Under the pieces are notes generated by a model. The model ran no database searches. It was not told the DNA's origin and saw only the letters and a list, made by a program, of their open reading frames with translations. From contig JAKFWZ010000080.1 of NCBI GenBank assembly GCA_021731695.1, forward strand, positions 34,021-98,020: a DNA stretch of 64,000 bases, written 5' to 3'. Shown here in pieces: positions 686 to 55,860 of this stretch; the first letter of the stretch is position 1, and each line of letters starts with the position of its first letter. This stretch comes from Candidatus Daviesbacteria bacterium. GTDB taxonomy: Bacteria > Patescibacteriota > Microgenomatia > Daviesbacterales > UBA10151. The position numbers and the translations under genes were made by a program.

Positions 686-2107
686 TCAACTTTTTTCATA
701 ATACTTTTTTCCTTTTAATTTCTCCGGCAGAAAGTCTTCATCACCATACATTTGATATCCTTTTCCATAATCCAATTCCTTCATTAATTTCGTCGGCGCA
801 TTTCTCAAATTTAGGGGAATCGGTAGATGACCGTACTGCTTTACGTCCTCTAAGGCTTTAAAATATGCATCATAAGATCTGCGGTCCTTTTTAGCTGAGG
901 CCAAATAAACTACACCGTGGGCTAAATTAATCTGGCATTCAGGTAGCCCTATTGTTTCACAAGCTCTAAATACTTCATTTGCCACAACTAAAGCAGGCTG
1001 TGCCATTCCGATATCTTCTGAGGCAAAAATGACCATTCGTCTGGCAATAAACAAAGCATCTTCACCTGCATCAACCATCCTTGCAAGATAATACAAAGCC
1101 GCGTCAATATTAGAAGCCCGCATTGATTTTATAAACGCAGAAATTGTGTTGTAGTGGTCTTCACCCGCTTTATCATAAGAAAGTGCTTTTTTCTGAATCG
1201 CTTCCTCGATCAACTCTTTCGAGATAATACCCCTCATCCTAACCTTCTCCCTTAAGGGAGAAGGAACTAATGCACTCCCCTCTCTTTTGAGGGCTGAAGC
1301 AGTGAATCCTGCTTCAGCGGGTTCGACCCTTCGAGGGTCAGGGAGAGGTGGATGCGACTCAGGATTTAAGCCCTGTGCAGCTATCTCAAGCGTATTTAAA
1401 ATCATTCTGCCGTCGCCGTTTGATATCTGGATTAAAAGTTTTTTAGCATCTGGCATAATCTTCGCTTTTAATTCTTTAAGTCCTTTAACAATCATCAAAT
1501 TTAAATCTTCTTCGGTCAATTGCTCTAAAACAAAAACTCTTGATCTTGATAAAAGCGGATTTATAATTTCAAACGACGGGTTTTCTGTCGTGGCGCCAAT
1601 TAAAATTATTGTCCCGTTTTCTACGAAAGGCAAAAATGCATCCTGTTGAGCTTTATTAAATCTGTGAATTTCATCGATAAATATCACTACCTTGTCATCG
1701 CGTAGCGAGATCGCGGAGGCGTCATTACGAGCAAACAACGTTTGCGTAGTAATCTTAAAGATCGAAGGATCGCAAGCTTTGCTTATTTCACCAAGATCGC
1801 GACGTCTACTCGAAAGTCCAATGGACTTTCTCCCTCCTCGCGATGACTCAACTTGTTCAAATATCTTTTTTAACTCTGCAATTCCGGTCGTTACCGCAGA
1901 AAATTCCATAAATTCAGCTTCAATTTCACTCGCAATAATCCGCGCTAAAGTTGTTTTACCAACTCCGGGAGGTCCCCAAAAAATCATGGAAAAAATATTG
2001 CCGGATTTGATTGCTTTATAAAGTAATTTATCTTCGCCGATAATATGCTTTTGTCCAATAAATTCTGAAAGTTTTGAAGGTCTTAACCTGTCCGCCAGTG
2101 GATTCAT
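686..2107 (-). CDS. rarA: replication-associated recombination protein A (AAA+ ATPase) carrying two in-frame palindromic element insertions
   Basis: Walker [21 protein letters not shown] box, MgsA C-terminal domain; inserts 1694-1825 and about 1243-1352. Confidence 0.9.
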
Positions 2108-2225
2108 AATAGTCTCCTAACCATAAGCCGCGAACTCCGTGCCATACGCAATCCAATATATCCGAAAATTAAACGAATATCAAGAAATTTGATTATGAAA
2201 TTAGGATGGATTACACTTCTTAAAT

Positions 2226-2594
2226 ATGGAAAATCCATTCGCAAAAATACTTGATGCACTTGAGCAAAAAGCAGCCAAATGCCAAAAGGTAAGGCGTGCT
2301 CGGAGGGCTAACAGAATATCTTACAAATTGTTTCTTCGTCAGATGACTGAAGTAGGCAGGGACAAACTTTTAATCAAACTAACTGATCCAGTTACAGACA
2401 TACAACATGCGAGGGAAGTAGCAAAAATAATGAGGGTTGATGATCCGTCCGGTATCATGCCTGAACTTAGATGGATGCAACACAACGGATTACTAGTCAT
2501 GCACGGTCCTGAAAATCCGCCTGACTTAGACAGTATTATTATACCAACAGTTCCTGCTTTGCATCTAAGAACACTGCTTCTGCATCAAAAATGA
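2226..2594 (+). CDS. hypothetical protein (122 aa)
   Basis: ORF on opposite strand between rarA and cysS; no recognisable domain. Confidence 0.3.
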   Translation: MENPFAKILDALEQKAAKCQKVRRARRANRISYKLFLRQMTEVGRDKLLIKLTDPVTDIQHAREVAKIMRVDDPSGIMPELRWMQHNGLLVMHGPENPPDLDSIIIPTVPALHLRTLLLHQK

Positions 2595-3992
2595 TCAGGA
2601 AATTATCTTCACTTTAACTCCGTTAACAAAATCCTCTATTTCATACCCCATCTTCTTAATTTCTTTCCTTAATTCATCAGATTTTTCAAAATCTTTTTCT
2701 TCTCTCGCCTTTTCTCTTTGATTTAGCAGTTTTTGAACTTCCGCAGGTATCTCAATTTTTTTACCTACGTAATCAGAAAGTCCTAATCCCAAAACTTTAT
2801 CCATTTCTAAAATTGTTGCGGCTTTTTCGCCGGATGCAAAATCAGACTTCACCATTTCCCAAACAACAGCTAATGCTTTTGAAGTATTTAAATCCTCACC
2901 CAATGCATTAAGAAATTTCTCTGAAACATCCTTCGACACCTTCGACTCCTCCGACACATTCGAATTCCAATCCCTAACAATTTCTCTTAAATTATTTAGA
3001 GCAGTTTGACCGGCTTGCAAAGAATCCCAGGAAAAGTTTAGTTCTTCCCTATAATGAGCTGTTAAAAATAAATATCTTAGCGCTAGAGGATCAAACCCTT
3101 TAGCTCTTATATCATCAATAGTATAGAGATTTTTAAGAGATTTGCTCATTTTAACTTGATCAATTCTCAGGAAATTATGATGAACCCAATATCTGACAAA
3201 TTGCTCTCCGGTCGCTGCCTCTGATTGTGCTATCTCATTAGTATGATGGACAGGAATATGGTCTATTCCACCGGTGTGAATATCTAACGTATTGCCCAAA
3301 TACTCCATGCTCATAGCAGAACACTCTATATGCCAGCCGGGAAAACCTTCTCCCCACGGAGAATTCCATCTCATGACATGATCTTTGAAATGACCCACGG
3401 TAAAAAACCAAAGAGCAAAATCCGCAGGGTTTTTCTTTTTTGGATCAACTCTAACATCCTGTCTCACGCCAACAGTTTTTTCCTCTAATTTCTGACCTGT
3501 CAATTTTCCGTAGTTGGGAAATTTGGAAACATCAAAATAAATTGCCTGCTCTGTTTGATAAATAAAGCCTTTTTTTTCTAGAATTTGTATTAACTTGATC
3601 TGTTCTTTAATGTGATCTGTGGCTTTGACTAAATTATCAGGTGGATAAATATTTAAAGCTAAGGTAGATTTTATGAAATAATCAGTGAAATATTTGGCAA
3701 CTTCCCAAACCGATTCATTTCTTTCCTTAGCACCTTTTTCTAACTTATCATCTCCTTGATCTTCATCTGAAGTTAAATGCCCAACATCAGTTATGTTCAT
3801 CACATGTTTTACTTCATAACCATAAGCGACTAAAACTCTGACCAAAATATCATCGCTTGTATATTTTCTTAAATGACCAATATGGGTGTAGCCGTAAACA
3901 GTCGGTCCGCAGGTATACATTCCGACCTTCCTAGATTCCAGGGAAATAAATTCTTCAAGTTTACGGGATAAAGTGTTGTAAATCTTTAACAT
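2595..3992 (-). CDS. cysS: cysteinyl-tRNA synthetase
   Basis: class I HIGH motif (TCGPTVYGYTHIGH) and KMSKS motif; in-frame CGACTC-type short tandem repeat at 2931-2970. Confidence 0.92.
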   Translation of the reverse strand: MLKIYNTLSRKLEEFISLESRKVGMYTCGPTVYGYTHIGHLRKYTSDDILVRVLVAYGYEVKHVMNITDVGHLTSDEDQGDDKLEKGAKERNESVWEVAKYFTDYFIKSTLALNIYPPDNLVKATDHIKEQIKLIQILEKKGFIYQTEQAIYFDVSKFPNYGKLTGQKLEEKTVGVRQDVRVDPKKKNPADFALWFFTVGHFKDHVMRWNSPWGEGFPGWHIECSAMSMEYLGNTLDIHTGGIDHIPVHHTNEIAQSEAATGEQFVRYWVHHNFLRIDQVKMSKSLKNLYTIDDIRAKGFDPLALRYLFLTAHYREELNFSWDSLQAGQTALNNLREIVRDWNSNVSEESKVSKDVSEKFLNALGEDLNTSKALAVVWEMVKSDFASGEKAATILEMDKVLGLGLSDYVGKKIEIPAEVQKLLNQREKAREEKDFEKSDELRKEIKKMGYEIEDFVNGVKVKIIS

Positions 3993-4659: not shown

Positions 4660-4794
4660 AATGAAGCACCACGGGCTTACGCCCGTGGTTTCTTCTAGCT
4701 TCAAGCGGCTAAGGTCGCTTGTCCTCACACTACGTGTTCGGAAAATCTTCATCCGCGAGCTAATGCTCGTGGTTTTAAGATTTGTCGCTATAAA
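4660..4794 (+). repeat. 135-bp structured element, copy 1 (100% identical to 46761-46895)
   Basis: direct comparison of both loci; contains hairpins ccacgggc-ttac-gcccgtgg and cgcgagc-taat-gctcgtg. Confidence 0.9.
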
Positions 4795-4858
4795 CCAATT
4801 CCCAATGTTTTTTAATTGGAAATTTGAAATTGGCTTTATTGGTTTATTGGCTTTATTT
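4795..4858. repeat. CCAAT/ATTGG-rich intergenic palindromic element
   Basis: aaaccaattcccaat ... aattggctttattggtttattgg; same family at 12132, 34625, 39888, 60233. Confidence 0.6.
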
Positions 4859-4861
4859 TAA

Positions 4862-5458
4862 TCAGTATTCCTTTCGTCCTTCTAGGGCTCTTCTGAGCGT
4901 TGTCTCATCAGCATACTCCAAATCTCCTCCTACAGGAAGCCCGCGGGCAATTCTTGTGACCTTAATTCCAAGAGGCTTTATCAGCCTTTCAATATACATC
5001 GCCGTCGCTTCCCCTTCCATTGTCGGATTTGTGGCTACGATTATTTCAATAACTTCTTCTGATTTTAAACGGGGTAAAAGTTGTTTAATATAGAGCTCTT
5101 CCGGACCGATATTATCTAAAGGAGAAATTACGCCATGCAAGACATGATAAAGTCCTTTAAAATTTGCCCGTTCCATAGCGAGGACATCTAAGGGATCTTC
5201 AACAATCGCAATTAAAGTCCTGTCCCGACTGCCGTCTTGGTCAATTTCACAGGGATCAGTTTCTGAAATATTAAAACAAGTCTGACAAAGAACAGTTTTT
5301 TCCTTTAAAGCAATAGCAGCAGTTGCAAGCATTTCAGCTTCTTCTTTTGGTGCGTGAAGTAAATGATAAGTTAATCGTTGTGCAGATTTGGGACCAATGC
5401 CGGGGAGCCTTTCAAAAGCCTCAATTAAATCTCGAACAACTCGAGGTATAGTAGCCAT
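4862..5458 (-). CDS. recR: recombination protein RecR
   Basis: HhH N-terminus, C4 zinc finger (CQTCFNISETDPCEIC-like), Toprim domain. Confidence 0.9.
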   Translation of the reverse strand: MATIPRVVRDLIEAFERLPGIGPKSAQRLTYHLLHAPKEEAEMLATAAIALKEKTVLCQTCFNISETDPCEIDQDGSRDRTLIAIVEDPLDVLAMERANFKGLYHVLHGVISPLDNIGPEELYIKQLLPRLKSEEVIEIIVATNPTMEGEATAMYIERLIKPLGIKVTRIARGLPVGGDLEYADETTLRRALEGRKEY

Positions 5459-5540: not shown

Positions 5541-5921
5541 ATGAAGAACGGCAAGATCGAAACTTTTACAGATTTGAATGTCTGGAGAGAGGGGCATAAA
5601 TTAGTAATCATGATTTATGCAATTACAAAAGGATTTCCCAGAGAAGAAGTTTATTCGTTAGTAGATCAGATGCGTAGAGCAGCAGCTTCAATTACTGCAA
5701 ATATAGCAGAGGGTTTCGGGAGACAAGGCTATAAAGAAAAAGTTCAGTTTTATTATCTGTCAAAAGGATCTTTAGCGGAATTAAAAAATTTCATTCTAAT
5801 CTCAAAGGATGTAGGGTATCTATCAGAAAAAGATTTTAATTTACTTGTAAGTCAAGCAAATTTGGTAGATCAAATCCTTTCGGGCTTTATCAGAAAAAGC
5901 AAAACATTCATTAATCGTTAA
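5541..5921 (+). CDS. four-helix-bundle protein (TIGR02436 / 23S rRNA IVS protein, Avd-like)
   Basis: typical 120-aa family signature (EGFGRQ, SKGSLAEL); flanked by ATTAATC-type inverted repeats. Confidence 0.75.
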   Translation: MKNGKIETFTDLNVWREGHKLVIMIYAITKGFPREEVYSLVDQMRRAAASITANIAEGFGRQGYKEKVQFYYLSKGSLAELKNFILISKDVGYLSEKDFNLLVSQANLVDQILSGFIRKSKTFINR

Positions 5922-6281: not shown

Positions 6282-6465
6282 CGAGCTTAGAAACAAAGAC
6301 CGTAAAGATTTTGCGAAGGAGCTATCAGGGGAAAAGCGGACTCTGACGATTAGTCAGATGTCCGAAGGGGCAACCTCCCCGATTAGCGACTGAGAAAAAT
6401 TAGGCCGACTTTCCAGCGAGCAGAGTTTTGGTACTTTTGCGGTCAAAAGTACAAAGAAAGAATTT
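6282..6465 (+). repeat. Family-2 about 200-bp repeat element, copy A (TTTTGCGGTCAAAAG hairpin family)
   Basis: shares the tcagggga core and terminal hairpin gtacttttg-cggt-caaaagtac with copies at 9986, 10201, 27355, 42484. Confidence 0.8.
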
Positions 6466-6505
6466 TGCCATCAAAAGTGGCTAAAAAATATAACTGGATC
6501 CCAGA

Positions 6506-7300: not shown

Positions 7301-8224
7301 TTAACCATTTTTTGACGCCTCCAGTATATTTTCCATCAAAGAATAAATAGTCATTGGTCCGACTCCGCCGAATTTAGGGGTATACATTTTAGCTTTTTCA
7401 TAAGTACTGGGGTCAAAATCCCCTAGGCCTACATCTATTAATATTGCACCCTCTTTTATCATTTCGGAATTAACCAGACTCTGAACTCCGGTGCAGGAAA
7501 TAACCACATCTGCTTCCTGCAAATCATCAAAATTGCAGTCAGGATTTCTTTTATCGAGGCGCAGGATTTTATGGGCATTTTTCATACTTAATTGCTCAAC
7601 TAAAGGTTTTCCCACTTCGCCTTCTGAACCGACAACCCCAAAAACTGTTTCTTTATACCAATTTTCGTCATCGCGAAGCGAGATCGCGGAGGCGTCATCG
7701 CGAAGCGAGATCGCGGAGGCGTCATCGCGAGGTGCTTTCTCCGAAGCAATCTCAGAGCTTACGGGGATTGCTTCTTCACTTCGTGATATCGCAATGACTT
7801 CTTCCAGAATCTTCATAACACCCAAAACAGTCGCTGAGACAAATGGGCTGTCTTCTTTCATTCCGTCAATATCTTTTTTCGAATCAATTAAATTAATCAA
7901 ATCCCATTTTGTTTTATCTTTCAAAAAGTCTCTGCTCAGAGGAAGTTGAATCATTATCCCCTTAACCTCGTCGGTTTCGTTTAAACTCCGAATCTTTTTA
8001 GCAACATTTTCAAAGGAAGTATTAACAGAAAATTTCATAGGCAAAAAGTCGATGTAAAATTCATCGGCTTTTTTCTGCTTCATTTGGGTATATAAAAGAG
8101 AATTGGGATCACTGCCGATTAAAATGCTCACTACAAGAGGCCGTTCCTTTAAGGCACCTAATTTAGTTTTTAATTTGTCACCCAGCCTATCAGCTAAAGC
8201 TTTTCCGTCAATAATTTGAGACAT
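7301..8224 (-). CDS. folD: bifunctional methylenetetrahydrofolate dehydrogenase/cyclohydrolase with tandem in-frame element insertion
   Basis: FolD signature (IIDGKALA, QLPLP-like, GVGPMT); insert 7666-7803 encodes AIPVSSEIAS...[20 protein letters not shown]. Confidence 0.85.
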   Translation of the reverse strand: MSQIIDGKALADRLGDKLKTKLGALKERPLVVSILIGSDPNSLLYTQMKQKKADEFYIDFLPMKFSVNTSFENVAKKIRSLNETDEVKGIMIQLPLSRDFLKDKTKWDLINLIDSKKDIDGMKEDSPFVSATVLGVMKILEEVIAISRSEEAIPVSSEIASEKAPRDDASAISLRDDASAISLRDDENWYKETVFGVVGSEGEVGKPLVEQLSMKNAHKILRLDKRNPDCNFDDLQEADVVISCTGVQSLVNSEMIKEGAILIDVGLGDFDPSTYEKAKMYTPKFGGVGPMTIYSLMENILEASKNG

Positions 8225-9985: not shown

Positions 9986-10160
9986 CTTCCACTTTTGACG
10001 CAAAAGTGGAGCAAAACATACTCGCTGGAAAGTCGACCTAATTTTATTCAGTCGCTAATCGGGGAACCTTACCCCTTCGGCTTTTTTGCTAATCACAAAA
10101 AACCGAAATCCCCTGATAGCTCCTTCATAAAATCTTCACGGTCTTTGTTTCTAAGCTCGT
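9986..10160 (-). repeat. Family-2 repeat element, copy B (inverted orientation)
   Basis: reverse complement matches copies A/D/E; hairpin variant ccacttttg-acgc-caaaagtgg shows compensatory changes. Confidence 0.8.
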
Positions 10161-10200
10161 CTTTAAAAGGCTTTGATTTATTTGAACACAAAAATAAATT

Positions 10201-10450
10201 GCGAGCATGAACGCAGCACCGTTGCTTTGCGAAGCAAAGGGCGTATTAGAATTCTTGAGTGAGCTGTCAGGGAGTGTCGGCTTCAGTTTACTGAAGACCG
10301 AAGTGGGCTCTGCACGAAGTGCGAGCGGGAGTCTAAATGACTCCCCGGAATGTCCCGACAAGTGAACGAAAGAATTTAGGCGACCGTTCCTGTCTCGCAG
10401 AGTTTTGCTTCTTTTGCGGTCAAAAGAAGAAAGAAAGAATTTTGTGATCA
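10201..10450 (+). repeat. Family-2 repeat element, copy C
   Basis: core tagaattcttgagtgagctgtcaggg and hairpin cttcttttg-cggt-caaaagaag. Confidence 0.8.
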
Positions 10451-10466
10451 AAGTAACAAGTAAGAA

Positions 10467-12122
10467 TTAACTATTAAAAATTTCTGAAGCTATTTTTATA
10501 ATTTCATCATCAGCTGCAACTTCCACATTCGCCACTTCCTCAATCCCAACCAATCTTTTGCCCAACCTTGTTGAAACTTTCACAGGCTTTCCTAAGACTT
10601 CAGCTAAAATTGACTCAAGTAAATTTCTTGATTTAGGCGCCTCCAGAATCCTTTGATGAAATGAATAGGGAACTTCGAGAATAACATTCGAACCATCACA
10701 ATTTACAACTTTTGTTTGTTTTAAAAGAGCCTCAAGCGAATAATTATAAGGCTTAATTGTTTCCAATATATAGGTCCATTTATCACTGATTACAATTACA
10801 TCGTCAGTCGACTGCATATCATCAACTGAAGGAATTGGCTCGGATTTGGACGATGGAGGATTGATGATAGAAAATGGGTTTTTGGGAATAGAAGGCTGAG
10901 AATAGACTTCTTTTTCTATTCTTCCAACTTCTACCTTCAAAACACTATCTTCCATCCTACTATATTCGACCTTCGGTTGTTCCTTTGATATGCTTTTCAC
11001 AACCGCAACTTCCAGAGGTAAAACTGCAAGAGTTGTGTACTTAAGTTGTTCTAAAACAGCCTGGAAATTTTCAATGTATGAAACAATTTGTCCGATCTCA
11101 GATTTATCCGCAAAACCCTTAACTTCTTCCCACTTTGCAGTTCCAAGTTCAGATTTAATTGGTTCAACAACTCCATTTTTAGTAAGCATCACAGACCTTA
11201 AAGTCTTCAAAACCAGGTTCGTGAATTCCTTTATATTCGCACCCTTTTCGCTCAAGCTATTAATCAATACTAAGCATTCAGTAGATTTTTTTTGCTGAAT
11301 TAAATTAAGTAAGTTCATAATCTCAGAAAAATCATTTGCTTTAAGCAATGCGCGAACTTCTTCCGGAGTTTTAACGCCTGATGAAGCTATCTGATCAAGA
11401 TTTTTAACAGCATCCCTGAAACTGCCTTCACTTCTTTCGGATATTAAGCTTAAGATTTCATCATTCAATTCCAATTTTTCTTTTTCTGCAATATCTTTAA
11501 GCACTGATTTAATTTGATCACCGGAAGCTAAATTGAAATCAAATCTTTGCACACGGGATAAAATTGTCTGAGGGATTTTTCGATCCTCAGTTGTGGCTAA
11601 AATAAACAAAACGTGTGCAGGCGGTTCTTCTAAAGTTTTCAGAAGCGCATTGAATGCTTCAGGAGTAAGCATATGAACTTCATCGATAATATAAACTTTC
11701 ATCCTCGCTGAGCTCGGAGAAAGTTTGATCTTTTCGCGCAAGTCACGGATATCATCAATTCCCCGGTTTGAAGCGGCATCAATTTCGATCAAGTCCATGT
11801 TAGAACCGTCGGTTATTGAGATGCAGGCTGAGCATTTATTGCAGGGAATCTTTAAGTCGCTAGAATCTAGAGTCGAGAGTCTAGGGGTTTCCTTTTTTTC
11901 ACTAGATTCTAGACTCTGGCGACTAGACTCCTGCGCTTCACAATTTACAAGCTTTGCCAGAATCCGGGCTGTTGAAGTTTTTCCTGATCCTCTTGGGCCG
12001 ACAAATAAGTATGCATGTCCTAATTTTCCCAGGCTAAATGCATTTAAAAGAGTTTTTTTAACATGATCCTGCCCGATAAGTTGTTCAAAATTTTGAGGTC
12101 GGTACTTGCGATAAAAAACCAT
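10467..12122 (-). CDS. dnaX: DNA polymerase III subunit gamma/tau
   Basis: MVFYRKYRPQ start, Walker A GPRGSGKTS, zinc module; in-frame palindrome at 11859-11932. Confidence 0.9.
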   Translation of the reverse strand: MVFYRKYRPQNFEQLIGQDHVKKTLLNAFSLGKLGHAYLFVGPRGSGKTSTARILAKLVNCEAQESSRQSLESSEKKETPRLSTLDSSDLKIPCNKCSACISITDGSNMDLIEIDAASNRGIDDIRDLREKIKLSPSSARMKVYIIDEVHMLTPEAFNALLKTLEEPPAHVLFILATTEDRKIPQTILSRVQRFDFNLASGDQIKSVLKDIAEKEKLELNDEILSLISERSEGSFRDAVKNLDQIASSGVKTPEEVRALLKANDFSEIMNLLNLIQQKKSTECLVLINSLSEKGANIKEFTNLVLKTLRSVMLTKNGVVEPIKSELGTAKWEEVKGFADKSEIGQIVSYIENFQAVLEQLKYTTLAVLPLEVAVVKSISKEQPKVEYSRMEDSVLKVEVGRIEKEVYSQPSIPKNPFSIINPPSSKSEPIPSVDDMQSTDDVIVISDKWTYILETIKPYNYSLEALLKQTKVVNCDGSNVILEVPYSFHQRILEAPKSRNLLESILAEVLGKPVKVSTRLGKRLVGIEEVANVEVAADDEIIKIASEIFNS

Positions 12123-12131: not shown

Positions 12132-12227
12132 ATAAAACCAATTCCCAATATAACAAATAAAACCAATTCCCAATAATCGTTTTCATTGGGCATTTGGCAT
12201 TGGTTTATTGGATTTATTGGTTTATTA
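12132..12227. repeat. CCAAT/ATTGG-rich intergenic palindromic element
   Basis: aaaccaattcccaata x2 ... attgggcatttggcattggtttattgg. Confidence 0.6.
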
Positions 12228-13194: not shown

Positions 13195-13203
13195 TTTATA
13201 AGC

Positions 13204-13308
13204 GTCATTGCGAGGAACGACCTGCCTACCGTCAGGCAGGAGTGACGTGGCAATCTTGATTAAAGCAAAATCAGGATTCCTACGCGCACTCTGTGCGCTC
13301 TGAATGAC
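13204..13308. repeat. Family-1 palindromic element, intergenic copy
   Basis: gtcattgcgaggaacgacctgcctaccgtcaggcagg ... gcgctctgaatgac. Confidence 0.8.
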
Positions 13309-20244: not shown

Positions 20245-20435
20245 TTTGAATTAAGTTTCCAAGAAATAAGCAGAGCTTGCGATTCTACGAATCTAAAGCA
20301 TAGCTTGCGAGCTTGCGCTCTTAAGATACAAGTATTCCAAACAATAATCAATATTAAAACTTTCAAATCTAAAATATTTGATTATTGAAAATTGTTATTT
20401 GGAGCTTGTTTGTTTCTTGCGTCTTGGACACTTGG

Positions 20436-25591: not shown

Positions 25592-25826
25592 GTCATTACG
25601 AGGAACGACCTGCCTGACGGCAGGCAGGAGCGACGTAGTAATCTTGATTCTGTCATTCCGGTGAAAACCTGCCTGACGGCAGACAGGCCGGAATCCAGGC
25701 AAAAACATCTGGATCCCAGATCTCCCCTTGTCAAAATGCTTTGCATTTTGCAAGCGACCTCCTGGCTACGCCAGTCCGGTAGTCTGGGATGACAATCGAG
25801 ATTGCGACGCTAACGCTCGCAATGAC
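25592..25826. repeat. Family-1 composite palindromic element (5 nested modules)
   Basis: gtcattacgagg ... ctgcctgacggcaggcagg ... gtcattccgg ... ccggaatccagg ... ctgggatgac ... ctcgcaatgac. Confidence 0.8.
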
Positions 25827-34617: not shown

Positions 34618-34624
34618 GATTTAA

Positions 34625-34765
34625 ATAAACCAATAACCCAATATACAAATAAACCAATTCCCAATGGAATTGTCTTGGGACGTTGTCTAAAACCAATTCC
34701 CAATTTTACTTTTTAAATTTTATTGGGCATTTGGCATTGGGTTATTTGTTTATTGGTTTATTCAT
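34625..34765. repeat. CCAAT/ATTGG-rich intergenic palindromic element
   Basis: aaaccaattcccaatgg ... aaaccaattcccaat ... attgggcatttggcattgggttatttgtttattgg. Confidence 0.6.
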
Positions 34766-35151
34766 TTGACTCTAATAACTTCTCCCTCTAAATCAAGTTC
34801 AACAAAATGGGTCGCCCTTCCTTCTATAAAAGCCGGACATTGATTTTCAGGAAAATCGTCTAAATCCTGTCTCGGATTATGAGCCAAATCTGCAACCCAA
34901 TCCTGATCTAAATCATTTGTTAAACAGGGACCCGTTGAAAAATCTATTCCAATTGCTTTTCGATCCCCGTAAAGTTTTTGCGCCCGGCCAACCATATTAT
35001 CAATTTCATCCGAAAGTCCGGGTTTATATGTTCCTCTTACTGCAGAATTAAATGGATTTGTTTCGTGAACGTAAACAATTAATAGAGAAACAATAGCAAT
35101 TACAGAAAGCACTAATATAAGTAGCTTAGCCCTTGAAACCATATAGACCAA
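34762..35151 (-). CDS. hypothetical protein with N-terminal signal/TM
   Basis: 129 aa; hydrophobic N-terminus LLILVLSVIAIVSLLIV. Confidence 0.4.
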   Translation of the reverse strand: MVYMVSRAKLLILVLSVIAIVSLLIVYVHETNPFNSAVRGTYKPGLSDEIDNMVGRAQKLYGDRKAIGIDFSTGPCLTNDLDQDWVADLAHNPRQDLDDFPENQCPAFIEGRATHFVELDLEGEVIRVK

Positions 35152-39878: not shown

Positions 39879-39887
39879 TATTTAATA

Positions 39888-39990
39888 AAACCAATAAACA
39901 AATAACCCAATAAAACCAATTCCCAATTTATTTTTCCTGCCTTTTATTTGGCATTGGTTTTATTTGCATATTGGCTTCATTGGTTTATTC
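39888..39990. repeat. CCAAT/ATTGG-rich intergenic palindromic element
   Basis: aaaccaataaacaaataacccaataaaaccaattcccaat ... ttggcattggttttatttgcatattggcttcattgg. Confidence 0.6.
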
Positions 39991-42483: not shown

Positions 42484-42700
42484 TGAACGCAGCGCCGTTT
42501 GAGTTTAAAGTTTTTGTCTAAGAACAAAGCGCGTTTAGAATTTTTGAGTGAGTTGTCAGGGGATTTCGGTTTTTTGTGATTAGCAAAAAAGCCGAAGGGG
42601 CAGCCTCCCCGACTAACGAACAAAAAAATTTAGCGCGACTTCTCGACAAAAAGAGTTTTGCTACTTTTGCGGTCAAAAGTAGAAGAAAGAAAAGAAAAAA
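42484..42700 (+). repeat. Family-2 repeat element, copy E
   Basis: tagaatttttgagtgagttgtcagggga ... gctacttttg-cggt-caaaagtag; Family-1 module 42701-42739 follows. Confidence 0.8.
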
Positions 42701-42747
42701 ATCGAGATTGCCACGTCGCCTTTGGCTCCTCGCAATGACAAACATTT

Positions 42748-43959
42748 ATGACTAACATTATTAAACTTCCTGGACTAATCGATACTCACGTCCATTTACG
42801 CGAACCCGGTCTTACGCATAAAGAAGACTTTGAGTCAGGCACAAAAGCTGCAATTGCAGGCGGATACACAGTTGTTTTAGATATGCCCAACAACCCAAAC
42901 CCAATTACCAATCCCGAAGCTTTAGCTGAGAAAATAAAATTAGCTGAGGGCGTCATTGCGATATCACGCAATGAAGAAGCAATCCCAGCAAGCTCTGAGA
43001 TTGCCGCGTCGCCACGTTCAGTTAACATGAATGTGGCTCCTCGCAATGACGATACAAATACCCTCGCCCTCAAGGGAGAGGGCCAGGGTGAGGGGTATTC
43101 CAGAATCTACTGTGACTTAGGTTTTCATTTCGGCGCCTCAGAAGAAGCAATTAAATATTTCGGGGATGTTCAGGAAAAAGTCTTTGGTTTAAAGGTTTAT
43201 ATGAACCACACAACCGGTGAACTATTGATAGAAGACAAAAAATTACTTAATGAGATATTTGAAGCCTGGCCCAAAGATAAAGTATTAATGGTTCATGCAG
43301 AAACAGAAACTTTAGCTATGGCTATAGAACTGGCGAAAAAACATGGCAACACTCTTCACGTTTGCCACGTTGCGAGGAAAATTGAACTGGAATTAATTAA
43401 GCAGGCAAAATCAGAAGGGCTTCCAATCACTTGCGAAGTTTCTCTTCATCATCTTTATTTAACCCACGAAGATGAGGAAAGACTCAGGCATTTCGGAATG
43501 ATGCGCCCACCCTTAGCCTCGCCTGAAGATGTGCAATATCTTTGGGATAATATTGATTCAATCGATACGATAGCTTCGGATCACGCACCTCACACAAAGG
43601 AAGAAAAGGAAAGCGAGAAAGTTGTAAATGGTGTGCCAGGATTAGAAACCAGTCTTCCTCTATTACTTAACGCGATTAATGATGAAAGATTAACGATTAA
43701 TGATTTAATCAGACTAACTTCTGAAAATCCCAGAAAGATATTTAATATCCCTAAACAGCAGGATACATATGTAGAGGTTGATCTCGACGCAGAATGGACA
43801 ATTTCTAATGACGGATTATTTACAAAAGCGGGCTGGACACCTTTCGCAGGAATGAAAATAAAAGGAAAAATCCTAAAAACAGTTTTAAGAGGAGAGACAG
43901 TTTTTGAGAATGGTGAAATTAAAAATGCTCCTTCAGGAAAAGTTATTTTCCCAAAATGA
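42748..43959 (+). CDS. pyrC: dihydroorotase with in-frame element insertion
   Basis: metal ligands DTHVHLREPG, amidohydrolase fold; insert 42952-43100 encodes GVIAISRNEEAIPASSEIAAS ... APRND ... LALKGEGQGEG. Confidence 0.85.
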   Translation: MTNIIKLPGLIDTHVHLREPGLTHKEDFESGTKAAIAGGYTVVLDMPNNPNPITNPEALAEKIKLAEGVIAISRNEEAIPASSEIAASPRSVNMNVAPRNDDTNTLALKGEGQGEGYSRIYCDLGFHFGASEEAIKYFGDVQEKVFGLKVYMNHTTGELLIEDKKLLNEIFEAWPKDKVLMVHAETETLAMAIELAKKHGNTLHVCHVARKIELELIKQAKSEGLPITCEVSLHHLYLTHEDEERLRHFGMMRPPLASPEDVQYLWDNIDSIDTIASDHAPHTKEEKESEKVVNGVPGLETSLPLLLNAINDERLTINDLIRLTSENPRKIFNIPKQQDTYVEVDLDAEWTISNDGLFTKAGWTPFAGMKIKGKILKTVLRGETVFENGEIKNAPSGKVIFPK

Positions 43960-46471: not shown

Positions 46472-47104
46472 CTACAAATCTACCTCACCAGATTCAATCA
46501 CCATCACCCAATCTTTTATTCCCAACTGCTTAATGTATTTTCTTAGCGGATCTTTACAATCCCTCTTTGATGCCCAAAGACTTTTCTGCCAAGGTACGAA
46601 CCCCCATTCCCTAAGTCTAAATCTAAGTAAATTCCTGGCTTCTTTCCTTTTTTCCGGAATATCAAACGAAACCAAAGTCCACTTGCCATTCCACTCTTTA
46701 TCGTCTACTTCTTTTAGTTTTGCCCAAATCGCCTTGTCTAAACCTGTATCGCTTAACTTTAATGAAGCACCACGGGCTTACGCCCGTGGTTTCTTCTAGC
46801 TTCAAGCGGCTAAGGTCGCTTGTCCTCACACTACGTGTTCGGAAAATCTTCATCCGCGAGCTAATGCTCGTGGTTTTAAGATTTGTCGCTATAAAAGCTT
46901 TTCTTCGTCAATAAAATCAACTAAACCTTTTTCCCTTAGCCTCTTCAGCGCCTGAGCAAGGAGGGGTTTCTTAATCATTTTGGGATAACCATACAAATAC
47001 TTGTGTGGATGATTGATAAAATCTTCAAATTTTACATAGCCGTCAACAGATTTCTCAAGTGCCAATAAGATTGTATTCGTTAAAGGTTTTTTTGTTCCGC
47101 CCAT
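46472..47104 (-). pseudogene. wHTH plus Cas2-like gene split by insertion of the 135-bp element (paralog of 59025-59570)
   Basis: N-terminal piece 46889-47104 (LLAQALKRLREKGLV) and C-terminal piece 46472-46777 (KWTLVSFDIPEKRKEARNLL ... WQKSLW) are in the same frame; the element introduces TAG/TGA/TAA stops. Confidence 0.6.
46761..46895 (+). repeat. 135-bp structured element, copy 2 (100% identical to 4660-4794)
   Basis: exact identity over 135 bp; length is 45 codons. Confidence 0.9.
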
Positions 47105-50996: not shown

Positions 50997-53174
50997 TTGC
51001 TAACCCCTAAACCTTTAATATTGAAGCTGATTATGCTTCTTAAAATTTTGAAGGCGGGTTTTATTCTCCTTTTTTGCTTAACACCATTTGTATTCACAAA
51101 ATTTAACTCCGAGCTTTTTGAGTACAACAAAATGATGCTGGTCTACTTATTAACCGTTATTACGGCGGGAACCTGGATATTAAGAATGATTTCCGAAAAA
51201 AGATTGATCTGGAAGAGGACTATCCTGGACATTCCTTTAGCTTTATTCCTAATAAGCCAACTTATCTCAACTATTATCTCAATCGATATTCACACTTCAA
51301 TTTGGGGCTATTACTCGCGCTCAAACGGCGGACTTCTTTCGGTAATTTCTTTTATTGTTTTGTATTTTGCATTCGTTTCGAATTTTGAAAGCAAAGATGT
51401 TTTGAAGTTTTTAAAAGCTTCGGTTGTAGCCGGAGCATTTGTTGCTTTATATGCAATTCCGGAACACTTCGGTGCCTCCTTTTCCTGTTTAATTTTGGAA
51501 CAAGGACTAACTGTAAGCTGCTGGGTTCAGGATGTTCAGGCAAGAGTTTTCGGAACTCTCGGCCAGCCGAATTGGTTAGCTGCATATCTCTCCATGTTAA
51601 TCTTTCCGGCAATATACTTTTTCATAACAGCCAAAACTGTTTCTAAACGTATCTCGTATTTCGTATTGCTTATTGCGTATTACCTGGCCTTCACTTTCAC
51701 CTACTCAAGAGGCGCAACTTTAGGTTTAATCGCCGGAGCGGCAGTAATGGGACTTGGCGTTTTATATTCTGGAGTAAGATCAAACGATTATAAAAACTTT
51801 AAACTTTACACCATCGTTATCATTGTTCTTTTATTTTTGAGCATGGTTTACGGAACAGCGATCAGCGAATACAGACTATTAAACGATCCTTCAGTTCCTT
51901 TGCGTCCTACACTATCAGAATCAGGCTCAAGCGGAACACAACTGGAAAATGGCGGAACTGAATCAGGAAAAATCAGGCTAATTGTATGGAACGGCGCTTT
52001 AGATATTTTTAGAGCTTTTCCAATATTTGGCTCAGGCGTTGAAACCTTTGCTTATGCTTATTATCAATTCAGACCACCCGAGCATAACATGGTTTCAGAG
52101 TGGGACTTTTTATATAACAAGGCTCATAATGAGTATCTTAATTATTTAGCCACAACAGGAGCTTTTGGGTTTTTAAGTTATATTGCGGTTATTATTGTTT
52201 TTTTGTTATGGGTTATGCGTTATGTGCTGCTCATAAAACCCAAAGAACTCATAACTCATAACTCACTACTCAAGAGCGAAAGCTCGCAAGCTCTGCTTAT
52301 AACGTCCCTTGCTGCAGGTTATATCAGCTTCTTGGTTCAAAATTTCTTCCTTTTCTCCGTAGTTACAGGCTCCTTATTTTTCTATATGTTTCCCGCAATT
52401 CTTTTCGTTTACTTTGACGAAGTCAAAGAGCTTTCGCCTAAAAATATCCTGTCCAGGTCTTTAGAAAAGCTTTTCATATTAATCAGCCGTAATAAGATCT
52501 CTTTGTGGATTGTGCGAATCTTGATTGTTCTCATTATCTTAATTTTTCTGAATAACCTTTTATCACTTTGGGAAGCTGATAAAGCGTATAAAGACGGCTC
52601 TGCGTATAATGACTATGGAAATCCCGGAAGAGCTTACAATTTTTTAATTGAAGCAGTTGGTTTAAACCCAGGTGAACCTCTATATTTAGTAGAACTTGGA
52701 AACGCAGCCGGATCATCAGCAATTGCATTAGCAGAAGAAGATGCAACAACTTCAGCTGAACTTATTGGCGATTCGGAATTTTTTACAGATTTAGGAATAT
52801 CAATCAGTCCAGTTAATACTTCAGTCCTACGAACTGCAATAAGAACTTACTTTCAATTAAGTTTACTCGACCCAAAATATAAAGATAAAACGCTCGAAAT
52901 CGTTAACCAGACAATAGAACTTGCACCAACTGATCCAAAACTTTTAGTTAATAAGGCAGTTATATTAACGCAATTCGAGCAGATTCCTGAGGCAATTGAA
53001 GCGTATAAAAAAGCTGTTGAATTAAAACCCGATTATCGGGAAGCCAGATTGCAGTTGGGGGATTTGTATGTAAAAACAAATCAGAAGGATTTGGCAAAGC
53101 AACAGGCGGATTATGTTTTGGAAAAAATTCCCAATGATCCTGATGCTTTAAAACTTCAGGAAGCGGCAAAATAA
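50997..53174 (+). CDS. polytopic membrane protein, O-antigen ligase/Wzy-like with C-terminal TPR repeats
   Basis: at least 10 TM helices, then TPR-like repeats (AIEAYKKAVELKPDYREARLQLGDLY). Confidence 0.55.
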   Translation: MLTPKPLILKLIMLLKILKAGFILLFCLTPFVFTKFNSELFEYNKMMLVYLLTVITAGTWILRMISEKRLIWKRTILDIPLALFLISQLISTIISIDIHTSIWGYYSRSNGGLLSVISFIVLYFAFVSNFESKDVLKFLKASVVAGAFVALYAIPEHFGASFSCLILEQGLTVSCWVQDVQARVFGTLGQPNWLAAYLSMLIFPAIYFFITAKTVSKRISYFVLLIAYYLAFTFTYSRGATLGLIAGAAVMGLGVLYSGVRSNDYKNFKLYTIVIIVLLFLSMVYGTAISEYRLLNDPSVPLRPTLSESGSSGTQLENGGTESGKIRLIVWNGALDIFRAFPIFGSGVETFAYAYYQFRPPEHNMVSEWDFLYNKAHNEYLNYLATTGAFGFLSYIAVIIVFLLWVMRYVLLIKPKELITHNSLLKSESSQALLITSLAAGYISFLVQNFFLFSVVTGSLFFYMFPAILFVYFDEVKELSPKNILSRSLEKLFILISRNKISLWIVRILIVLIILIFLNNLLSLWEADKAYKDGSAYNDYGNPGRAYNFLIEAVGLNPGEPLYLVELGNAAGSSAIALAEEDATTSAELIGDSEFFTDLGISISPVNTSVLRTAIRTYFQLSLLDPKYKDKTLEIVNQTIELAPTDPKLLVNKAVILTQFEQIPEAIEAYKKAVELKPDYREARLQLGDLYVKTNQKDLAKQQADYVLEKIPNDPDALKLQEAAK

Positions 53175-53579: not shown

Positions 53580-53581
53580 TT

Positions 53582-54358: not shown

Positions 54359-54877
54359 ATGATACTGGTAATTGCGCCCGATAATAAATTAAGGGTTCAG
54401 ACAAAGCATATAAAAAAATTCTCGCCCAAATATCAACAGACTATTAAAGATATGGTAAAGCTGACTAAAACTTTCGTTGATCCGGAAGGTGTTGGACTGG
54501 CTTCAACTCAAGTTGGTTTAGACGAGCAATATTTCGTTGCCAAAAAAGACGACGGTAAATTTAAAGCCTACTTTAATCCTAAAATATTAAAGAGTTCAAA
54601 GGTTACAAAAGTTTATACTGAAGGCTGCTTATCGATTCCAAATTATTGGGGTGAAGTTTCAAGACACTTATGGGTTGATGTTGAATATCAGGATATTAAT
54701 GGCAATAAAATTAAAGAAAGATTGAAGGGTTTAGAGGCACATATTTATCAGCATGAATGCGATCATTTAAAAGGCGTTTTATTTATGGATCATATTTTAG
54801 AGAAGAAAACTAAACTGTATAAAGTTGTCGGAAAAGATCAAACAGGAGCGGATGTTTATGAGCAAGTGCCGCTCTAG
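54359..54877 (+). CDS. def: peptide deformylase
   Basis: motifs GVGLASTQVG, EGCLSIP, QHECDHL. Confidence 0.88.
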   Translation: MILVIAPDNKLRVQTKHIKKFSPKYQQTIKDMVKLTKTFVDPEGVGLASTQVGLDEQYFVAKKDDGKFKAYFNPKILKSSKVTKVYTEGCLSIPNYWGEVSRHLWVDVEYQDINGNKIKERLKGLEAHIYQHECDHLKGVLFMDHILEKKTKLYKVVGKDQTGADVYEQVPL

Positions 54878-54993
54878 CTTCGCTAGAGAAATTTCAAGAA
54901 ACAAGTTACAAGTGTCCAATTAATGACCAAATAATAATTTTCAATTTGAATATTTGAATTTGTGATTTGTTTGTTTCTTGTTTCTTGTTTCTT

Positions 54994-55860
54994 ATGAAAA
55001 TTATATTCCTTGGCACTCCTGATTACGTTGATCCAATAATCCAAACTCTTGATGAAAACTTCGAGCTCGTCAAAGTCATTCGCTCTTCCTCCGACTCTTT
55101 CGACTCATTCGACTCTTTGCAGCCTGACCTTTTAGTTGTCGCTTCATTTGGAAAAATAATTCCTCAATCAATTCTGGAAATTCCAAAGTTCGGAGCAATA
55201 AATATTCACCCTTCACTTTTGCCTAAGTACCGCGGTCCTTCACCTCTTCAAAATCAGATTTTAGACGGAGTTACTGATTCTGCAATTTCGTTTATTTTAA
55301 TGGACAGCGAAATGGATCACGGACCGATATTAAAACAAGTGCCTTTTCAGATTTCAGAAAATGACACGTTCCAGAGTCTTTGCGAAAAAATGTTTGCCGA
55401 GTCTGCAAAATATATTTCAGAAGTTGTTCAGAGTTTAGCTGATGGCAGTATTCAAAAAACAGCGCAAAATGAAGAAGACGCAACTGTTACTAAATTAGTT
55501 GAAAAAGAAGACGGATACTTCGATATCGATAACCCTCCGGCTCCAGAAAAATTACAAAAAATGATCCGCGCATATTATCCTTGGCCAGGAACCTGGACAA
55601 AATGGAATGGGAAAATTGTGAAGTTTTTACCTAACCCCTCCGTCATCGCGAAGCGAGATCGCGAAGGCGTCATTGCGAGACCACGAAGTGGCGAAGCAAT
55701 CTCAGAAAGCGAATCCAATAAATCTATCAGCACTGGGATTGCTTCGGAGAAAGCACCTCGCAATGACGCACCTTTCTTAGTGCAAATGGAAGGGAAAAAA
55801 GCCACAGACTTTAAATCATTCCTAAACGGCTACCCTGATTTTCCTCTCAAATCTATTTGA
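54994..55860 (+). CDS. fmt: methionyl-tRNA formyltransferase with in-frame element insertions
   Basis: formyltransferase N-domain (MKIIFLGTPD, NIHPSLLPKYRG); inserts 55087-55118 and 55642-55767 encode SVIAKRDREGVIARPRSGEAISESE ... IASEKAPRNDA. Confidence 0.8.
   Translation: MKIIFLGTPDYVDPIIQTLDENFELVKVIRSSSDSFDSFDSLQPDLLVVASFGKIIPQSILEIPKFGAINIHPSLLPKYRGPSPLQNQILDGVTDSAISFILMDSEMDHGPILKQVPFQISENDTFQSLCEKMFAESAKYISEVVQSLADGSIQKTAQNEEDATVTKLVEKEDGYFDIDNPPAPEKLQKMIRAYYPWPGTWTKWNGKIVKFLPNPSVIAKRDREGVIARPRSGEAISESESNKSISTGIASEKAPRNDAPFLVQMEGKKATDFKSFLNGYPDFPLKSI

Follow-up and report, generated by a model that had tools for sequence, protein, structure and literature searches.

In-frame hairpin repeats and short tandem arrays in exposed loops of housekeeping proteins of a Daviesbacteria-like genome

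Palindromic repeats that reside inside bacterial genes have been documented both as intragenic REPs, many of which lie in genes for replication and repair, and as in-frame RPEs (PMC3733652, PMC10969869), with the CGTC class of REPs being described as lacking a dedicated transposase (Di Nocera et al. 2013, PMC3733652). Among short tandem repeats, the comparators are the cyanobacterial heptamers, the TAACTGA repeats of Beggiatoaceae (PMC4679880) and heptameric repeats (PMC4692102). The DNA analysed here, 64 kb of one Daviesbacteria-like (Patescibacteria) genome and referred to below as the window, comes from a small-genome bacterium of the candidate phyla radiation, in which hairpin repeats and arrays of 7-9-base units lie in frame in exposed loops of housekeeping proteins. 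It represents a known kind of phenomenon in a new lineage, the unusual variant being hairpins with tandem-repeat arms. The host genes were named by Pfam within the ORFs of the window, which bore out the gene names of an earlier note on this DNA; each string quoted there was also found at its place.

686-2107, minus strand: rarA/MgsA
2595-3992, minus strand: cysS
10467-12122, minus strand: dnaX
29714-31921, minus strand: topA
42748-43959, plus strand: pyrC, a CAD-type dihydroorotase
50997-53174, plus strand: O-antigen-ligase-like gene, a Wzy_C+TPR protein
54994-55860, plus strand: fmt

The earlier note had proposed that palindromic and tandem segments inserted into genes systematically pepper the proteome with repeat-derived peptides. 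Such peptides, missing in orthologs, do occur, but the list mixed three different things, namely inserted G+C-rich palindromes, resident coding arrays with little or no gain in residues, and a mostly intergenic motif. Measured against close relatives and solved structures, the inserted peptides hold for rarA, dnaX, pyrC and the ligase-like loop, barely for cysS and topA, and not for fmt. E. coli DnaX, E. coli TopA, human CAD dihydroorotase and B. burgdorferi CysRS are all without the segments. Several of the listed elements are not unique to this genome: relatives at 65-76% protein identity likewise have the dnaX hairpin, the topA array and the pyrC unit. The inserts missing in orthologs belong to repeat families (unit A of rarA excepted), vary in frame and orientation and form hairpins, and the inserted residues are predicted by AlphaFold to be disordered.

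1229-1264, minus strand: unit B of the rarA insert, GEG palindrome family; hairpin CCTTCTCCC-TTAA-GGGAGAAGG with a TTAGGATGAGGGGT tail, 12-residue translation
1272-1356, minus strand: unit A of the rarA insert; outer CCTCTC/GAGAGG stem with two inner hairpins, 27-residue translation
11850-11936, minus strand: 87-nt insert in dnaX, 29 codons long; imperfect hairpin, A-rich in its loop and with arms of repeated heptamers
43060-43096, plus strand: GEG unit of pyrC, 37 nt; ACCCTCGCCCTCAAGGGAGAGGGCCAGGGTGAGGGGT, translated TLALKGEGQGEG

The insertions in rarA, dnaX and pyrC are real, but their boundaries are wider than had been noted. The rarA insert comprises 44 in-frame codons (about 1232-1363), is missing in six of nine relatives (L003, L004, L005, L007, L008, L009) and folds with z = -4.0 to -4.7. 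Its unit B has a perfect 9-bp stem and matches the pyrC unit at 80% identity over 35 nt (blastn), and the GEG family (about 35 nt) is read in two frames, giving the 12-residue peptide in rarA and LALKGEGQGEG in pyrC. Unit A, with the inner hairpins GCTGAAGCAG..CTGCTTCAGC and GACCCT-TCG-AGGGTC (fold z = -4.0 and -4.7), is missing from relatives; neither a second copy in the window or in 797 kb of related loci nor its peptide in 1.8 billion representative proteins was found, and since no second copy turned up wherever it was searched for, it does not qualify as a repeat family. In pyrC, a composite insert of ~150 nt (50 codons, about 42951-43101) has the GEG unit at its 3' end, and its remainder is a Family-1 element, called CGTC-tagged because it starts with CGTCATTGCGA and ends with TCGCAATGACG. 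The whole insert is missing in the human enzyme and in most close relatives; L114 has an empty site at the DNA level, and L115 and L116 carry the GEG unit alone at the same site. Comparison of the pyrC junction with the L114 empty site revealed neither a target-site duplication nor any terminal inverted repeat other than the hairpin itself. AlphaFold assigns residues 68-125 of the pyrC product a pLDDT <50, as coil. Both this loop and site 2 of rarA hold different elements in different relatives, and one element found between genes in the window lies in frame within rarA of L001.

The dnaX insert, with arms of CTAGAAT/CTAGAGT/CGAGAGT heptamers, separates the first two Cys of the zinc module, at a point where E. 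coli gamma/tau has 4 residues. Its DNA folds with z = -2.8, and DnaX residues 66-89 have a pLDDT <50 in AlphaFold. While 4 of 23 Daviesbacteria DnaX proteins are without an insert, the others hold at least four unrelated kinds, and L027 has a homologous 87-nt hairpin. The site folds better than shuffles in five of the six orthologs with DNA (z -2.2 to -5.3), even though the arms are built from unrelated heptamers or 9-mers (GAGTCTA, CAGCTGT, CGACGAG, GAGTCGAAG). In L113, the left arm is (GRGTCGRAN)x4 and the right arm contains CCTTCGACTC twice; because the 9-mer of the arrays thus builds both arms of a hairpin, arrays and hairpins are regarded as one phenomenon.

2930-2969, minus strand: cysS 9-bp array, ~4 units of TCGAAGGTG type, read S-[EK]-[EV] (TRF, pattern test)
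31195-31233, minus strand: topA 9-bp array, TCG AAG GAG TCG GAG GGG TCG AAA GAG TCG AAG = SKESEGSKESK (TRF)
55088-55118, plus strand: fmt 9-bp array, GAC TCT TTC / GAC TCA TTC / GAC TCT TTG = DSFDSFDSL (TRF, pattern test)

These TTCGACTC 9-bp arrays do exist and are related to one another, yet they scarcely qualify as insertions: fmt gains 0 codons, cysS 1-4 and topA 5. The cysS array replaces a variable loop, and its inserted appearance is marginal at a net +1 to +4 residues in the alignment with syntenic relatives. The topA array does add residues against most relatives, but only five, and it is common to relatives: L108 has a matching array (36/39 nt identical), L110 a (ACTAAGGAG) variant and L109, at this site too, (TCAAGGG) x3.5, an array of heptamers. 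The topA array predates the genome of the window. In fmt, the notion of an insertion fails, the closest relative L028 being equal in length (SPKEALDQLNS vs SSSDSFDSFDS). In B. anthracis Fmt the aligned region is a helix, L029/L030 have ETIEQFNNL at the array site, and the array retains the physicochemical pattern that the ancestral helix had; this retention, together with the zero added residues, means that homogenised native sequence explains the fmt array better than insertion. Its DNA unit is that of cysS and topA on the opposite strand, read D-S-F as against S-K-E, and the 9-mer unit GAGTCGAAG occurs in four different genes of two genomes.

52204-52300, plus strand: variable loop of the ligase-like gene; hairpin (GTTATGN)x3 / (AACTCAT)x3, then a reverse-orientation copy of the AGAGC-GCAAGCTCGCAAGCT-type motif
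20265-20321, plus strand: two adjacent motif copies, ATAAGCARAGCTTGCGAG(CTTGCGCTCT), intergenic, in the 191-nt tsf-frr spacer
60662-60688, plus strand: intergenic motif copy between ORF 60320-60664 and tRNA-Trp
1769-1789, minus strand: partial motif copy, reading ATAAGCAAAGCTTGCGATCC on the coding strand, within the other rarA insert (Family-1)
60338-60354: further partial motif copy

The AGCTTGCG motif is present in at least six copies in the window, with more in L032, L035/L036, L038 and L044. All segments had been said to keep the frame, which is true of those in genes, but of the three gcagagcttgcgag copies two fall outside genes, in the tsf-frr spacer (20265-20321) and after an ORF (60662-60688), and for these the claim fails. 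The tsf-frr spacer measures 191 nt in the window vs 8 nt in the relative L026. Alignment with 10 syntenic relatives places an insertion of ~12 residues in the ligase-like loop, whose hairpin folds with z = -3.4 and whose left arm overlaps W and R residues conserved in the relatives; L032 and L038 have other elements in this loop.

Across the window, the pattern YCGACN4YCGAC gave 6 matches vs 0.12 expected, every one on the plus strand, and AGCTTGCGAGCTTGCGCTCT gave 3 vs 0 expected. Perfect G+C-rich hairpins with a stem of at least 8 numbered 11 against 1.1 expected and are denser outside genes, where 7 of them fall in ~23% of the DNA. Tandem arrays of 7-9-nt units occupy 45 loci (5.9 expected), 9 of the 10 period-9 arrays being genic and 10 of the 14 period-8 arrays intergenic. 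The codons in the arrays are minority ones (TCG 15%, GAC 22%, AAG 24%). Intergenic spacers are rich in heptamer arrays, and many are occupied by similar hairpins with tandem-repeat arms.

The reading that we consider likely is that of REP/RPE-like selfish palindromes together with coding microsatellites that arise by slippage, with selection for an intact frame and for permissive loops acting as the filter. Small non-autonomous REP/RPE/MITE-like palindromes, among them the ~36-nt GEG unit, the AGCTTGCG motif and CGTC-tagged Family-1 elements, would land at many places, whereas replication slippage and fold-back template switching would make and reshape arrays of 7-9-nt units and also yield inverted array pairs, i.e. 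hairpins with tandem-repeat arms. In a gene-dense genome, the in-gene survivors would be those that keep the frame, bring no stop codon and lie in exposed, disorder-tolerant loops. The outcome would be repeat-derived peptides in a few permissive hot loops, with the same loops of orthologs holding different elements. A slippage signature is seen at the topA site, which has 9-mer, variant 9-mer or 7-mer arrays depending on the relative. No transposase domain was found in any ORF of the window, which fits non-autonomous elements. We infer the slippage and template-switch mechanism, selective neutrality and a mobilising enzyme, which was not found in the window. The missing enzyme, the pyrC junction with neither duplication nor extra inverted repeats, the single-copy unit A of rarA and the fmt array that adds no residues all count against this reading.

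Persistence of the dnaX hairpin in five of six orthologs despite unrelated arms is something that pure neutral decay of selfish palindromes does not predict, and it needs repeated replacement, concerted evolution of both arms, or selection for structure. It lends weight to an alternative, by which the in-gene hairpins are selected functional nucleic-acid structures, possibly acting in mRNA stability or as RNase sites, in translational pausing, or as DNA cruciforms in replication or transcription, with the peptides as a by-product. In the same direction point the loop AAACAGAAGA, common to the dnaX hairpins of L027 and L112 with their different arms, and the tandem-repeat-armed hairpins of many intergenic spacers. 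However, the host genes are unrelated in function, some DnaX orthologs do without any insert, that of L026 has decayed (z = -0.6), and other relatives have Family-1-type elements at the dnaX site, so that we regard this alternative as unlikely.

An explanation by selection at the protein level, which takes the segments for common low-complexity linkers or disordered loops peculiar to the lineage and their DNA repetitiveness for incidental, would account for their S/E/K/D/G-rich composition, their location in variable loops with AlphaFold-predicted disorder, and the replacement of ETIEQFNNL by DSFDSFDSL in fmt with the amphipathic helix pattern retained. It appears improbable given that one DNA unit is used in several frames and on both strands, with copies also in intergenic DNA, that the DNA is palindromic far above chance, that the arrays depart from the usual codon usage of the genome, and that matching sites of orthologs hold unrelated peptides. 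Metagenome assembly or binning artefacts (repeat-induced chimeras, collapsed repeats) come to mind with a MAG contig of 101.5 kb, since assemblers are known to stumble over short repeats, yet they are very improbable here: long ORFs stay open across every in-gene segment, the elements are far shorter than sequencing reads, and homologous segments occupy the same sites in independent assemblies made from different samples with different pipelines (L115 from ENA; L027, L108 and L116 from Logan).

Seen as selfish palindromes and slippage-generated arrays, the elements closely resemble the Rickettsia RPE (Ogata et al. 2000, via PMC10969869 and PMC3733652), a likeness of palindromy and placement. 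As far as these two accounts describe them, both are dispersed palindromes in frame in unrelated housekeeping genes of a small genome, with the host ORF intact, fold-compatible positions and intergenic copies as well, whereas the units here measure ~20-45 nt as against ~100-150 bp. Further differences are that several unrelated units stand side by side in one loop, that orthologs reuse the same loops for different elements, and that the host belongs to Patescibacteria, not Rickettsiales. With the GTAG/CGTC REPs (PMC3733652) they have in common intragenic hosts (here dnaX, topA and rarA) and, through the Family-1 partner in the pyrC composite, the CGTC tag; CGTC REPs go without a dedicated transposase, and none was seen in the window. 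They differ in that the GEG unit, the AGCTTGCG motif and rarA unit A bear neither a GTAG nor a CGTC tag, in that the window has no RAYT gene, and in that Patescibacteria are missing from the phyla given in PMC3733652. Like MITEs, they are short, non-autonomous, hairpin-forming and dispersed, with in-frame fusions possible, but the units are smaller than the usual MITE and, at the one comparable junction (pyrC/L114), without target-site duplication or IS-derived terminal inverted repeats. Coding SSRs (6-9-nt units) and heptamer repeats are matched in the excess of 7-9-nt arrays, the whole-unit length variation and the intergenic heptamers; in contrast to them, the arrays here are found within essential genes, there mostly with period 9, a single 9-mer (GAGTCGAAG) recurs in four genes of two genomes, and the arrays are often inverted pairs that form long hairpins.

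Comparison with orthologs bears out in part the proposal of an earlier note that short palindromic or tandem segments have been inserted into genes of the window: the segments of rarA, dnaX, pyrC and one loop of the ligase-like gene do look inserted, those of cysS and topA are marginal, and that of fmt does not look inserted. The observation is thus confirmed in part, and the interpretation placed on it is supported in part. The genes had been named correctly, as judged by Pfam, and all quoted strings were found where they had been placed; chance does not account for them. The claim that every segment keeps the frame holds for rarA, dnaX, pyrC and the ligase loop, where the ORF is intact, and is meaningless for the motif copies at 20265-20321 and 60662-60688, since these are intergenic.

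Coding segments of the window
1229-1264: rarA insert, unit B, CCTTCTCCC-TTAA-GGGAGAAGG and then a tail
1272-1356: rarA insert, unit A, an outer CCTCTC/GAGAGG stem enclosing two inner hairpins
2930-2969: cysS, 9-bp array
31195-31233: topA, 9-bp array
pyrC composite: a CGTC-tagged element CGTCATTGCGA...TCGCAATGACG of Family-1 (another class of in-frame insert), and then the 37-nt unit ACCCTCGCCCTCAAGGGAGAGGGCCAGGGTGAGGGGT
50997-53174, plus strand: ligase-like gene (Wzy_C and TPR protein) with a hairpin and a motif copy in one loop
55088-55118: fmt, 9-bp array

The window has a G+C content of about 38%, most of its genes lie on the minus strand, and Rfam recognizes three tRNAs in it and nothing else. 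DnaX, TopA and PyrC each have a single exact entry in the protein collection, and their nearest named relatives belong to Candidatus Daviesbacteria, Microgenomates and Patescibacteria; an exact look-up of the RarA protein returned no match. The gene order rpsB-tsf-frr-rseP-proS-...-tig-...-ybeY-dnaX-glyA-...-recR-...-rarA is kept in the related loci L026 and L027, which makes orthologous sites comparable at the DNA level. The window's closest relatives (L001, L002, L006, L007 and L009) are deposited as 'uncultured Gammaproteobacteria' MAGs, a label that looks wrong because all other homologs are from Patescibacteria. Between about 41 and 56 kb the predominant gene orientation changes from minus to plus, and the cumulative GC skew is lowest near 54-56 kb; this region may lie close to a replication origin, and neither dnaA nor dnaN was identified there. 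ORF 5541-5921 belongs to the 23S rRNA-intervening-sequence protein family (PF05635) and has an L026 homolog at the syntenic place.

When aligned with RarA proteins from genome contigs, a 44-residue segment encoded at about 1232-1363 is missing from six of nine relatives. At the same point the L001 gene carries CTGGATCCCGGATCAAGTCCGGGATGACA, an element that also occurs in intergenic DNA at four places in the window, the L002 gene a 105-nt hairpin with arms of GGTACC-type repeats, and the L003 gene a small CCGGTC/GACCGG palindrome, while the window's own insert is a composite of units A and B. A search of the 44-residue peptide against 1.8 billion representative proteins gave no matches at E<=0.001, a weak negative given the short, low-complexity query; megablast of rarA against plasmids likewise gave no match, a second copy of unit A was absent from 797 kb of related loci (blastn-short), and the GEG core gave no pattern match in the loci of rarA relatives.

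The GEG unit, a palindrome family of about 36 nt that comprises rarA unit B and the 37-nt unit of pyrC, links the two genes, the pyrC unit being 80% identical over 35 nt to the coding strand of unit B (CCTTCTCCCTTAAGGGAGAAGGTTAGGATGAGGGG; blastn). PyrC residues 68-121 are extra relative to human CAD dihydroorotase, and in most close relatives, including the closest (P0242), KLAE is joined directly to GRIY. At the DNA level the L114 gene provides the empty site, in which GCAGAAGGA abuts CGGATTTAT, and the window has about 150 nt inserted at this position. The L115 and L116 genes carry the 37-nt unit alone at the same site with shared flanking bases, which indicates that the unit predates this genome. 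AlphaFold2 models built on clade alignments place PyrC residues 68-125 in coil with pLDDT <50, between the helix 56-67 and the strand 126-129; DnaX likewise folds confidently, with pLDDT <50 at residues 66-89, so that the inserts are predicted to form disordered loops at the protein surface.

The dnaX insert lies in the zinc module, where the E. coli gamma/tau protein has four residues from NCE(T) to (T)PC, that is, from the first to the second cysteine, and the window protein has about 29 more. Among 23 DnaX proteins of the clade, four are without an insert, one (P0004) has an insert homologous to that of the window, and the remainder carry at least three other kinds, Family-1-like peptides among them. 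In the six orthologs whose DNA was available, the insert forms a hairpin with short tandem-repeat arms.

Arm units and DNA fold z-scores of the dnaX-site hairpin
Window: GAGTCTA / CTAGACT, z -2.8
L027: GAGTCTA / CTAGACT, z -5.3
L111: CAGCTGT, z -4.8
L112: CGACGAG, z -2.2
L113: GAGTCGAAG, z -3.2
L026: decayed CAGC-type arms, z -0.6

Programmed -1 frameshifting at the A AAA AAG found in the zero frame within the hairpin loop was considered and rejected: L027, L111, L112 and L113 do not share the motif, it sits in the loop and not upstream of the stem, and a shift at about codon 77 would yield truncation only.

The loop of the ligase-like gene, about 12 residues longer than in relatives, is shared by a hairpin, in which (GTTATGN)x3 pairs with (AACTCAT)x3 (z = -3.4), and a copy of the AGCTTGCG motif that follows it; other elements occupy this loop in L032 and L038. 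The left arm overlaps residues kept in relatives, a hint that native sequence may have been copied in inverted orientation to give the right arm. The core of the gcagagcttgcgag motif is ATAAGCARAGCTTGCGAG, often followed by CTTGCGCTCT, and AGCTTGCGAGCTTGCGCTCT occurs three times in the window against an expectation of 0. At least six full or partial copies of the AGCTTGCG motif are present in the window, and more are found in L032, L035/L036, L038 and L044.

Copies of the AGCTTGCG motif in the window
20265-20321: two copies, tsf-frr spacer
60338-60354: one copy
60662-60688: one copy, after ORF 60320-60664
rarA: one copy, inside the Family-1 insert
ligase-like gene: one copy

The tsf-frr spacer (20245-20435) is filled with repeats and measures 191 nt, as opposed to 8 nt in L026, so that its motif copy lies within an intergenic insertion. 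Truncation of tsf by an insertion was rejected, as EF-Ts has 151 aa in the window and L026 alike and the short gene is thus a feature of the clade.

The arrays of cysS, topA and fmt have one unit in common and contain minority codons; the period-9 pattern YCGACN4YCGAC has six matches in the window against 0.12 expected, all on the plus strand and all in these three genes. In cysS and topA the 9-mer encodes S-K-E, and fmt reads it off the opposite strand as D-S-F. In cysS the array lies in a variable loop that is longer by one to four residues than in syntenic relatives, and in topA it adds five residues relative to most relatives. At the topA site the window and L108 share (TCGAAGGAG)~4, with 36 of 39 nt identical, L110 has the (ACTAAGGAG) variant, and L109 a perfect heptamer array, (TCAAGGG)x3.5; judged from these alignments, the topA array is a resident evolving coding repeat and not itself a recent insertion. 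The closest relative of fmt is of equal length at the array, and DSFDSFDSL mirrors the ancestral ETIEQFNNL / EALDQLNSL residue by residue, a pattern that reads as homogenisation, not insertion. The L113 dnaX hairpin has the 9-mer as its left arm, (GRGTCGRAN)x4, and two copies of the complement CCTTCGACTC as its right arm, which ties the arrays to the hairpins. A role of the GAGTC arrays as nicking or restriction sites (PleI/MlyI-type GAGTC, or GANTC) was discarded, with GAGTC (32 against 26 expected) and GACTC (40 against 32) neither depleted nor enriched.

Across the whole window, tandem arrays of 7-9-nt units occupy 45 loci, compared with 5.9 +/- 2.5 in Markov-1 simulations. In what are small samples, nine of ten period-9 arrays are genic and one is intergenic, and ten of 14 period-8 arrays are intergenic, with two genic and two at gene edges, as would be expected if a general array-forming process were subject to a frame filter; genic period-7 arrays have mostly about 3-4 copies. 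The window contains 11 perfect G+C-rich hairpins (stem >=8 bp, loop 3-8), where simulations give 1.1; three lie in rarA and one in pyrC, and their density is higher in intergenic DNA.

Several other repeats were noted. Family-1 CGTC-tagged elements (CGTCATCGCGAAGCGAGATCGCGGAGG..., CGTCATTGCGA...TCGCAATGACG) stand in frame in folD (7610-7800, including a 27-nt unit repeated 2.4 times), topA (30535-30643), the C-terminal part of fmt (55628-55775) and rarA (1691-1840), and give recurring peptides. The mini-palindrome CTGCCTGCCGGCAGGCAGG in pyrG (27801-27853) encodes 'NLPAGRQT' in CTP synthase just ahead of the ERHRHRYE motif; palindromes of this type are intergenic at 25606-25628 and 13201-13260, and give LPAGRQ in L003 cysS and in L031 and L038 fmt. 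A (TTGTTTC)n array lies inside thyA (23204-23233), whose thymidylate synthase Pfam match is about 38 residues longer than the model, and another in the spacer upstream of fmt (54971-54993). A 135-nt repeat has two intergenic copies of 100% identity (4660-4794 and 46761-46895); its minus strand has a strong RNA fold (z = -6.2), with a G+C hairpin followed by a U-rich tail at the end, and no Rfam family matches it. It is a candidate for a small RNA encoded in two copies, or else may have been duplicated very recently. Another intergenic repeat, of about 100-180 nt (families D1, D4 and D13), is present in three to four copies of 66-95% identity (6348-6475, 10201-10452, 27365-27547 and 42523-42705); ORF 10125-10451, which overlaps one of them, is without a Pfam match and perhaps spurious. 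Long A+T-rich intergenic hairpins with arms of 7-8-nt tandem units (ATTGGTTT/AAACCAAT type) lie between co-directional genes at 4811-4871, 12135-12226, 34624-34767, 39884-39989 and 60230-60388, and are possibly terminators or promoter regions.

The best-supported reading, and a likely one, is that the segments are selfish palindromes together with products of slippage and template switching, filtered by selection. REP/RPE-like palindromes would insert, slippage with template switching would generate both tandem arrays and inverted pairs of arrays, and selection would retain those that keep the frame, introduce no stop codons and fall in permissive loops. That the segments are instead linkers selected at the protein level seems quite improbable; they are predicted to be disordered, as linkers might be. 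Translation of the GEG unit is shifted by one frame between pyrC (LALKGEGQGEG) and rarA (a 12-residue peptide), and this shows most clearly that the segments are DNA elements rather than protein motifs. An assembly artefact is barely credible; the 37-nt unit recurs at the pyrC site of L115 and L116.

The hairpin at the dnaX site is kept despite unrelated arms; it may have been replaced repeatedly, its two arms may have evolved in concert, or selection may have maintained the structure. A functional hairpin, whose pairing is kept by selection, is unlikely, the folds of most orthologs speaking for it and the decayed arms of L026 against. It is similarly doubtful that Daviesbacteria, and perhaps other Patescibacteria, keep a distinct hairpin module with an A-rich loop and arms of 7-9-nt tandem repeats, located in spacers and in fixed loops of essential genes such as the DnaX zinc module, with the arms replaced in concert and the pairing preserved; if true, either selection would be acting on nucleic-acid structure within coding DNA, or the lineage would possess a dedicated mechanism of its own for generating and homogenising hairpins.

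The inserts matter in several respects. Patescibacteria genomes are tiny and gene-dense and are usually called streamlined, and here the same loops are reused by different elements in sister genomes. The inserts inflate apparent protein divergence, disrupt profile alignments (the Pfam matches of DnaX, PyrC and Fmt are split around the segments), give rise to spurious small ORFs, and may lead MAG annotation astray. Permissive loops of essential proteins are marked by them as well, and in the hairpins with tandem-repeat arms one could study naturally how palindromes arise and persist in coding DNA.

In-frame palindromic repeats are classic in Rickettsia, where they are known as RPEs, and REPs within genes, often genes for replication and repair, have been described from several phyla (PMC10969869, PMC3733652), while heptamer repeat arrays are known from cyanobacteria and Beggiatoaceae (PMC4679880, PMC4692102). 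No papers linking Patescibacteria or Microgenomates to intragenic REPs or MITEs were found in the incomplete literature covered, which is weak evidence of novelty. As with RPEs, the segments of rarA, dnaX, pyrC and the ligase loop are absent from orthologs and introduce no stop, and the insertion points fall in loops or at the surface, according to AlphaFold predictions and to alignments with solved structures, where they coincide with gaps or variable loops; the inserts form hairpins (z from -2.6 to -5.3). Copies at unrelated loci were found, in the 64 kb of this genome covered and in related loci, for the GEG unit (rarA and pyrC, and pyrC of L115 and L116), the AGCTTGCG motif and the 9-mer unit. 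No dispersed copies of rarA unit A or of the exact dnaX hairpin sequence were seen in the 64-kb window, in 797 kb of related loci or, for the rarA insert peptide, among the 1.8 billion proteins; blastn-short of every element against the related loci matched nothing but the dnaX hairpin of L027 and short stretches of the AGCTTGCG motif. As in slippage-type coding repeats, the number or type of units differs among close relatives at one site (topA; TRF), and multiples of three are favoured in genes. Unlike RPEs, which measure about 100-150 bp, the units are 20-45 nt long, and the composites of 87-150 nt consist of unrelated units. The GTAG/CGTC tag by the stem that marks REPs is lacking from the GEG unit, rarA unit A and the AGCTTGCG motif, whereas the neighbouring Family-1 element in pyrC has CGTC at both ends; no Pfam domain of a RAYT (the IS200/IS605-type tyrosine transposase that partners GTAG REPs) was found in window ORFs of >=100 aa, and no transposase domain in any window ORF. 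Unlike a MITE, the filled pyrC site shows no target-site duplication relative to L114, the sole junction that could be compared. The elements described here work like RPE, REP and MITE systems, but are not members of the described families.
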